DNA of 64,000 bases from the NCBI RefSeq assembly GCF_003018255.1, contig NZ_CP027440.1. One strand, given 5' to 3'. The notes below the pieces were generated by a model. It made no database searches. It saw only the letters and a list, made by a program, of their open reading frames with translations, and was not told the DNA's origin. This document shows, piece by piece, positions 43,852 to 43,885 of the stretch (position 1 is the stretch's first letter; each line of letters starts with the position of its first letter). The DNA is from Escherichia coli. GTDB lineage: Bacteria; Pseudomonadota; Gammaproteobacteria; Enterobacterales; Enterobacteriaceae. The position numbers were made by a program, and so were the translations under genes.

Positions 43852-43885
43852 ATTTATGCAATATGCTGTCTGATTGCATAAATAT
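43852..43885. promoter_or_regulatory. Perfect 12-bp inverted repeat upstream of dtpD (candidate operator)
   Basis: TATTTATGCAAT-atgctgtctg-ATTGCATAAATA, 90-125 bp upstream of the dtpD start in the dtpD-ybgI divergent intergenic region. Confidence 0.3.

Follow-up and report, generated by a model that had tools for sequence, protein, structure and literature searches.

A candidate ArgR operator between dtpD and ybgI of Escherichia coli

ArgR operators of the Escherichia coli arginine regulon are pairs of ARG boxes, found at argA, argCBH/argE, argD, argF, argI, argG, argR, carAB, artJ and artPIQM; in all ten of the K-12 operators checked here the two boxes are separated by 3 bp, except at argR, where the gap is 2 bp. 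Single ARG boxes that bind ArgR alone are also described, ∼120 bp upstream of hisJ and as the ArgR site of ColE1 cer; strong individual boxes can function with no partner in phase. The operators of CytR and CRP at deoP2, cdd, udp, tsx and nupG share with the locus described here inverted TTGCA-type half-sites, separated by a one-turn spacer and lying between CRP-like sites, although the conservation pattern, CRP spacing and half-site quality observed at this locus do not fit that model.

The region between dtpD and ybgI carries two 18-bp imperfect palindromes that match the ARG-box consensus TNTGAATWWWWATTCANW and score as high as genuine strong boxes, here called box A and box B (Table 1). 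At a probability of roughly 0.7, and on the strength of sequence comparison, these boxes are proposed to form an ArgR operator that represses dtpD and probably the distal ybgI promoter. As in the operators of the arginine regulon, the boxes lie in a promoter region and their informative core is invariant across genera; boxes A and B share the TATGCAAT ending of the artJ and artP boxes, and the Klebsiella clade also resembles artJ and artP in pairing a strong with a weaker box across a 3-bp gap. Unlike those operators, the strong boxes of Escherichia are 10 bp apart (28 bp centre to centre) rather than 2–3 bp; only a half-site is left of the E. coli box at the canonical spacing; and the target of this putative site is a proton-coupled dipeptide permease rather than arginine biosynthesis or ABC transport. 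The single boxes of hisJ and cer offer a conceivable precedent for boxes A and B working independently and for the lone box B of Kluyvera and Yokenella, although at dtpD-ybgI two strong boxes stand close together.

Table 1. Coordinates of genes, promoter elements and sequence motifs in the dtpD-ybgI region, counted from the first base of the window (the whole stretch of E. coli DNA analysed, 64,000 nucleotides).
Feature	Position	Strand	Sequence	Remarks
dtpD (ybgH)	42280..43761	-		Dipeptide permease; gene with which the motif co-occurs
ybgI	44032..44775	+		First gene of ybgI-pxpBCA-nei; distal promoter overlaps box A
FNR-like site, also CRP-like	43835..43848	.	TTGATacagATCtg	8/10 FNR and 7/10 CRP core positions
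ARG box A	43845..43862	+	TCTGATTATTTATGCAAT	2 mismatches to TNTGAATWWWWATTCANW; 18.4 bits
Left arm, dtpD-proximal	43851..43862	.	TATTTATGCAAT	Positions 7-18 of ARG box A
Box C, canonical register	43852-43869			21 bp from box B; -1.8 bits in E. coli
Distal ybgI promoter start	43857	+		RegulonDB, 741,874 in U00096.2; inside left arm and box A
Candidate dtpD -10	43865..43860	-	CATATT	Overlaps GCATAT; putative
Invariant GCATAT	43861..43866	-	GCATAT	Left half-site of box C register; 21 bp from TGTAT of box B
ARG box B	43873..43890	-	AATGTATATTTATGCAAT	3 mismatches; 19.4 bits; top-scoring 18-mer of the window
Right arm, ybgI side	43873..43884	.	ATTGCATAAATA	Positions 7-18 of box B read on the minus strand
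Candidate dtpD -35	43883..43888	-	TGTATA	Left half-site of box B; 17 bp from CATATT
Proximal ybgI promoter -35	43965-43973		CTATCGACG	Published; GTCGA core conserved in all genera examined
Proximal ybgI promoter -10	43989-43996		GCTATGTT	Published; TATGTTA core conserved in all genera examined

The site had been singled out in an earlier note as a perfect 12-bp inverted repeat with a 10-bp spacer, and a repeat search bears this out, the arms being complementary at 12/12 positions across a 10-nt gap. The coordinates then assigned, 43852-43885, are off by one base, the true span being 43851-43884, whereas the dtpD-ybgI gene context was given correctly; the repeat lies 90–123 bp upstream of the dtpD ATG and 148–181 bp upstream of the ybgI ATG (window positions equal NC_000913.3 positions minus 698,795). 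Chance is a named rival for the repeat, and its expected frequency was estimated in two ways: Markov-1 simulations give, per 64 kb, 0.1 perfect inverted repeats of 12 bp whose arms are at most 20 nt apart, and the analytic expectation is 0.08 per 64 kb, ∼6 per 4.6-Mb genome and 5e-4 for the 270-bp dtpD-ybgI spacer. The repeat, described at the outset as longer than chance, is locally improbable, although a handful of its kind are expected by chance genome-wide. The other three perfect 12-bp repeats of the window are G+C-rich and terminator-like. No other exact copy of the 12-mer occurs within the 64-kb window, and the dtpD-ybgI region is found at a median of one place per E. coli genome; because the region is single-copy, the repeat is not a repetitive element, a possibility that would have counted against the operator idea. 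Elsewhere in the window, long inverted repeats with large loops, unlike simple terminators in appearance, were noted at 47195-47228 (11 bp, 12-nt loop), 59761-59799 (12 bp, 15-nt loop) and 48538-48576 (10 bp, 19-nt loop).

Either arm of the repeat makes up the 3' two-thirds of one 18-bp ARG box. Instead of one long palindromic operator, the region holds two inverted ARG boxes, each reaching 6 bp beyond its arm, with the outward 6 bp of each supplying the TG of the other half-site. Mismatches to TNTGAATWWWWATTCANW (Table 1) were counted over its 16 specified positions, and bit scores were derived from a matrix of only 20 sites, the ARG boxes located on NC_000913.3 (MG1655) in ten canonical operators (carA, argE/C, argR, argA, argD, argI, argG, artJ, artP and argF). 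Box B ranks first and box A second among 63,983 window positions, the third reaching 13.9 bits; known ARG boxes range from 5.2 to 22.3 bits in leave-one-out tests. A score of 15 bits is attained at only four positions in 592 kb of other enterobacterial DNA, and none scores at least 18 bits except K-12's own copy of the dtpD-ybgI site. Genuine boxes of artJ, artP, carA, argG and argA end, like the arms, in TATGCAAT or TATGCAAA. Two further ARG-box-like 18-mers were observed in the neighbourhood, one at 43745-43762 (GATGCGTGTTTATTCATA; 12.8 bits, rank 6), overlapping the dtpD start codon ∼100 bp from box A, and one inside ybgI at 44652-44669 (13.1 bits, rank 5 in the window).

Conservation was assessed in dtpD loci from 80 species, from which 38 dtpD-ybgI spacers (the window and 37 other species) were aligned. 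Across the 37 other species the whole spacer is 55% identical to the window, versus 99.6% for TGCATAAATATACA (43875-43888) and 99.5% for ATATGC (43861-43866), the only two invariant stretches around the repeat. The invariant 14-mer corresponds to positions 3–16 of box B, comprising both half-sites and the A/T centre, and is the informative core of an ARG box; the weakly informative box positions 1, 2, 17 and 18 vary between species. Mean identity is 0.75 for the left arm and 0.94 for the right arm, and retention of the dtpD-side arm is confined to Escherichia, Citrobacter, Pseudocitrobacter, Superficieibacter and a few more, with single one-sided substitutions disrupting the palindrome even within Escherichia. 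Conservation in close relatives, proposed earlier as a check on the repeat, is accordingly seen for the palindromic arm in Escherichia, Citrobacter and few relatives, but the arm is lost in most genera; and the 12-N10-12 dyad fails as a unit, its right arm and six of its ‘spacer’ bases being invariant and its left arm lineage-specific, without compensation. The palindrome is not the unit under selection, and its perfection in E. coli is a side effect of a second box that is specific to some lineages.

The same alignment bears on the proposal that the repeat is a structural element, either a cruciform in the DNA or a stem-loop near the start of an RNA (its 5' end), which is scarcely credible here. 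The full repeat does fold at -11 to -12 kcal/mol (z ∼ -3.1), and the annotated distal ybgI transcript would begin inside the left arm; 18 distinct sequences, however, contain zero compensatory changes, and their 77.8% of paired cells equals that of shuffles, so a hairpin or cruciform is not what is selected. One-sided substitutions break pairs within Escherichia itself, a transcript beginning at the annotated start would retain only a 6-bp stem of -4.6 kcal/mol, worse than shuffles, and searches for an Rfam family (sub-threshold noise only) or a T-run found neither.

The partner of box B differs between clades. The canonical tandem spacing of 20–21 bp centre to centre is lacking in the window, where the +21 18-mer, in the register of box C, has a negative score (Table 1); it is present in Klebsiella, Raoultella, Pluralibacter and Enterobacter-like genomes, in which the box C register scores 5.4–8.7 bits, resembling the weaker box of the artJ, artP, argR and argD operators (5.2–7.5 bits). 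The box at +28, box A, scores 8.6–18.4 bits in Escherichia, Citrobacter, Pseudocitrobacter, one Superficieibacter and a UBA5654 genome, and is weak in two Salmonella subspecies (5.9–6.9 bits); it is present in these groups only. Kluyvera, Yokenella and Intestinirhabdus retain box B alone. On this reading box B is the ancestral invariant site. Its partner in the Klebsiella clade occupies the canonical register, with a 3-bp gap and 21 bp between centres; Escherichia and Citrobacter have a strong second box 7 bp farther out, at 28 bp, and the last 12 bases of this second box equal those of box B, hence the perfect 12-bp palindrome.

A distance of 28 bp amounts to 2.7 helical turns, and one hexamer could not reach both boxes on the same face without distortion. 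This spacing, non-standard for one hexamer, is the main weakness of the ArgR reading in E. coli, and the out-of-phase box pair of Escherichia is the only point that a specialist might find surprising. Tentatively, and with considerable doubt, the 7-bp displacement of the second box in Escherichia and Citrobacter, which leaves two equally strong boxes and a half-site remaining at the old spacing, may signal that ArgR binds here in a non-canonical way, as two hexamers or in a twisted complex, and would serve as a two-way arginine switch on overlapping, opposed promoters, coupling dtpD with ybgI-pxpBCA-nei and competing with FNR; if true, such a switch would couple dipeptide uptake to an operon that includes 5-oxoprolinase, a glutamate source. 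If the operator is confirmed, the occurrence of 3-bp and 10-bp gaps in sister clades would offer a natural pair for studying how strict the need of the ArgR hexamer for in-phase boxes is.

The ARG boxes coincide with annotated or candidate promoter elements on both strands. The strand of the annotated distal ybgI start is deduced from a long primer-extension product obtained with a ybgI primer, and sigma-70 ChIP-seq places RNA polymerase at the distal promoter in vivo, with a predicted event at 43842, 15 bp from the start. Box A spans -12 to +6 of this start, and ArgR bound there would be expected to block this promoter. For dtpD, a candidate promoter, TGTATA-N17-CATATT, falls within boxes B and C, weak at 7/12 consensus matches. 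The invariant block might then carry core promoter elements only (this pair, or TATATT as the -10), the palindrome being incidental: the block is exactly 29 bp, equal to a hexamer, 17 bp and a hexamer; polymerase was located within ∼15 bp and a RegulonDB start in the left arm; and TATATT at 43886..43881 matches the -10 consensus at 5/6 positions. That promoter elements suffice is nonetheless unlikely, as a promoter scan gave no site above threshold, TGTATA and CATATT leave five of the twelve consensus positions unmatched, and promoter hexamers explain neither the eight invariant spacer bases (TTTATGCA) nor the top ARG-box rank of both arms. Since ARG boxes normally overlap promoters, this explanation is in any case compatible with, rather than opposed to, an ArgR operator.

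The promoters of the ybgI/nei operon were reportedly first mapped in an earlier paper. The hexamer edges of the proximal ybgI promoter vary across genera, and two studies place its start 10 nt apart, at -29 by 5' RACE and at 742,030 (-19) by primer extension. A tiny open reading frame (43856-43888, minus strand; ATG TAT ATT TAT GCA ATC AGA CAG CAT ATT GCA TAA) overlaps the boxes; it has 11 codons and a stop in E. coli, Klebsiella and Pluralibacter, is longer elsewhere and starts with GTG in Klebsiella. It is probably not translated, as it has no ribosome-binding site, shows no synonymous variation and varies in length.

The motif is tied to dtpD itself. It is found upstream of every dtpD orthologue examined and is absent in genomes without dtpD, where phr runs straight into ybgI on the same strand, with overlapping stop and start in Buttiauxella and a genome labelled Salmonella Choleraesuis, and with 118 bp between the two genes in Pantoea. 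Because of this arrangement, dtpD and its upstream region look inserted: they appear to have entered a ybgA-phr-ybgI-pxpBC-nei array in the opposite orientation, the motif travelling with dtpD, and the insertion would have forced ybgI to acquire promoters of its own. Upstream of more distant DtpD-like homologues (57–67% identity) no ARG box was found, the best match reaching 7.7 bits.

A CytR operator was considered as another reading of the arms, since ATTGCATA is similar to the octamer recognised by CytR, GTTGCATT; this would make dtpD a member of the CytR/CRP regulon. In its favour, anaerobic induction of ybgH in Shigella goes together with that of tsx, nupC, nupG and udp, genes of nucleoside transport and catabolism that are members of the CytR regulon. 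Each arm matches the octamer at 6/8 positions, the repeat has a CRP-like site on either side, at 43834-43849 and 43899-43914 (7/10 core positions in both), and the SELEX optima of CytR include inverted octamers with 10–13 bp spacers (PMC3454398), so that arms inverted across 10 bp fit a configuration that CytR can bind. Sequence conservation nevertheless makes the proposal very unlikely: the deeply conserved block runs outward as far as TGTATA, a sequence that CytR sites do not include, and ends inside the would-be second half-site, and most genera have lost the octamer on the dtpD side; the CRP-like sites are weak, 65 bp apart versus ∼50 bp, and not conserved outside close relatives. The locus thus departs from a CytR operator, in which octamer repeats lie between two CRP sites and orthologous sites are conserved, and it does not appear in the main text of a comparative-genomics study that sought further CytR targets. 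The ARG-box matrix gives a far better account of the two arms and the bases beside them.

An SOS box for LexA was a further candidate, TAATGTATATTTATGCAATC resembling the LexA consensus TACTGTATATATATACAGTA at 15/20 positions. A 213-bp dtpD reporter clone was called LexA-dependent from a BPROM-predicted LexA site and induction by mitomycin C; DNA damage reportedly induces ybgI, and the neighbouring genes phr, ybgI and nei have links to DNA damage. Most of the match, however, falls in the A/T centre, which ARG boxes have as well, and the CTG and CAG of a LexA box are missing, with ATG...CAA in E. coli and GTG...CAC in Klebsiella in their place; of the eight specified positions of CTGT-N8-ACAG three are missed, E. 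coli reading ATGT-N8-GCAA and Klebsiella GTGT...GCAC. DH5alpha is a recA1 strain, and as it was the reporter host, LexA cleavage cannot explain the mitomycin C induction. The position of the cloned fragment and that of the predicted site are not given in the reporter paper, and a LexA box at the repeat is an extremely remote prospect.

It is highly improbable that the repeat is an operator for Cra (FruR). Cra is reported to shift a dtpD promoter fragment in EMSA, and dtpD expression to follow a Cra-repressed pattern (PMC8085971). The repeat interior matches GCTGAANCGNTTCA at only 7/12 positions, short of a Cra operator, and the best Cra-like site, GCTGAAGCGTGATG at 43892-43905 (8/12), lies outside the repeat; it occurs in K-12 and the lineage of the window and not in other Escherichia species. 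This neighbouring site likely explains the published EMSA, and Cra probably acts next to the repeat, not through it.

The site was also scanned with consensus sequences for Cra, FNR, CRP, CytR, Lrp, LexA, IHF, H-NS and ArcA. The FNR-like site at the outer end of box A, which it overlaps, shows conservation in Escherichia, Citrobacter and Salmonella alone; it fits a weak FNR ChIP-chip peak given under the name ‘dtpB/ybgI’, in which dtpB is probably a misprint of dtpD, and agrees with the FNR-dependent expression of ybgH in Shigella. A perfect match, TATCAAAGTTTTA, to the IHF consensus WATCAANNNNTTR was seen at 43828-43840 (minus strand), within a segment, CTGTATCAAAGTTTTAACTTTAAGGAAACAC, that is strongly conserved only in the same three genera. 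FNR, CRP and IHF were set aside as regulators through the repeat because their matches lie beside it. It counts against the ArgR reading that Lrp, H-NS and IHF also prefer regulatory DNA rich in A/T, and Lrp-like 15-mers with 4 mismatches overlap both boxes. On inspection only, NsrR, sigma-54, sigma-32, PhoP, OmpR, Fur, Zur and Nac were dropped, as was a dif/XerCD-like site, the resemblance being limited to TAATGTATATT and the XerC arm not conserved. An in-silico GalR site labelled dtpD (741,888) falls inside the coding region in the coordinates of that paper and is irrelevant, and the ‘ybgI’ of a ChIP-exo paper on uncharacterised regulators is a misspelling of ygbI.

Returning to ArgR, the proposed operator would work as follows. 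When arginine is plentiful, the ArgR hexamer with L-arginine would bind the boxes and keep RNA polymerase off the dtpD promoter, and the bound protein would also occlude the distal ybgI promoter; dipeptide uptake by DtpD would in this way be turned down together with arginine synthesis and arginine transport. The initial guess of an operator survives in part: the evidence supports an operator bound by a protein, though not one made of a single palindrome, and it would probably serve a well-known regulator. Open-access main texts were found to pair neither ArgR nor arginine control with dtpD, ybgH or ybgI, and neither dtpD nor ybgH is mentioned in the main text of the genome-scale ArgR ChIP-exo study, although the site may already figure in a high-throughput list. 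To that extent the description of the repeat as having no assigned regulator stands; it was too strong for the neighbourhood, in view of the RegulonDB start in the left arm, the sigma-70 ChIP-seq, the Cra EMSA and the predicted FNR site abutting the repeat. The site is probably an ordinary, unrecorded member of the known ArgR regulon and not a new class of element. If confirmed, dtpD would join the arginine regulon, possibly along with the distal promoter of ybgI-pxpBCA-nei, and the poorly understood DtpD would gain a physiological context in peptide scavenging when arginine is scarce.

Within E. coli the site is close to fixed in sequence, the 45-bp stretch around the repeat being identical in 5240/5422 complete genomes. 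Departures from the usual arrangement are few: the dtpD-ybgI region is absent from 4/5426 E. coli genomes, one copy of the spacer lies on a plasmid record, and a few genomes have it at two places. In E. coli strain C012, IS1 lies within the spacer, flanked by a 9-bp duplication of CATTAGCTG (43887-43895), leaving both ARG boxes on the dtpD side, severed from ybgI and its proximal promoter.
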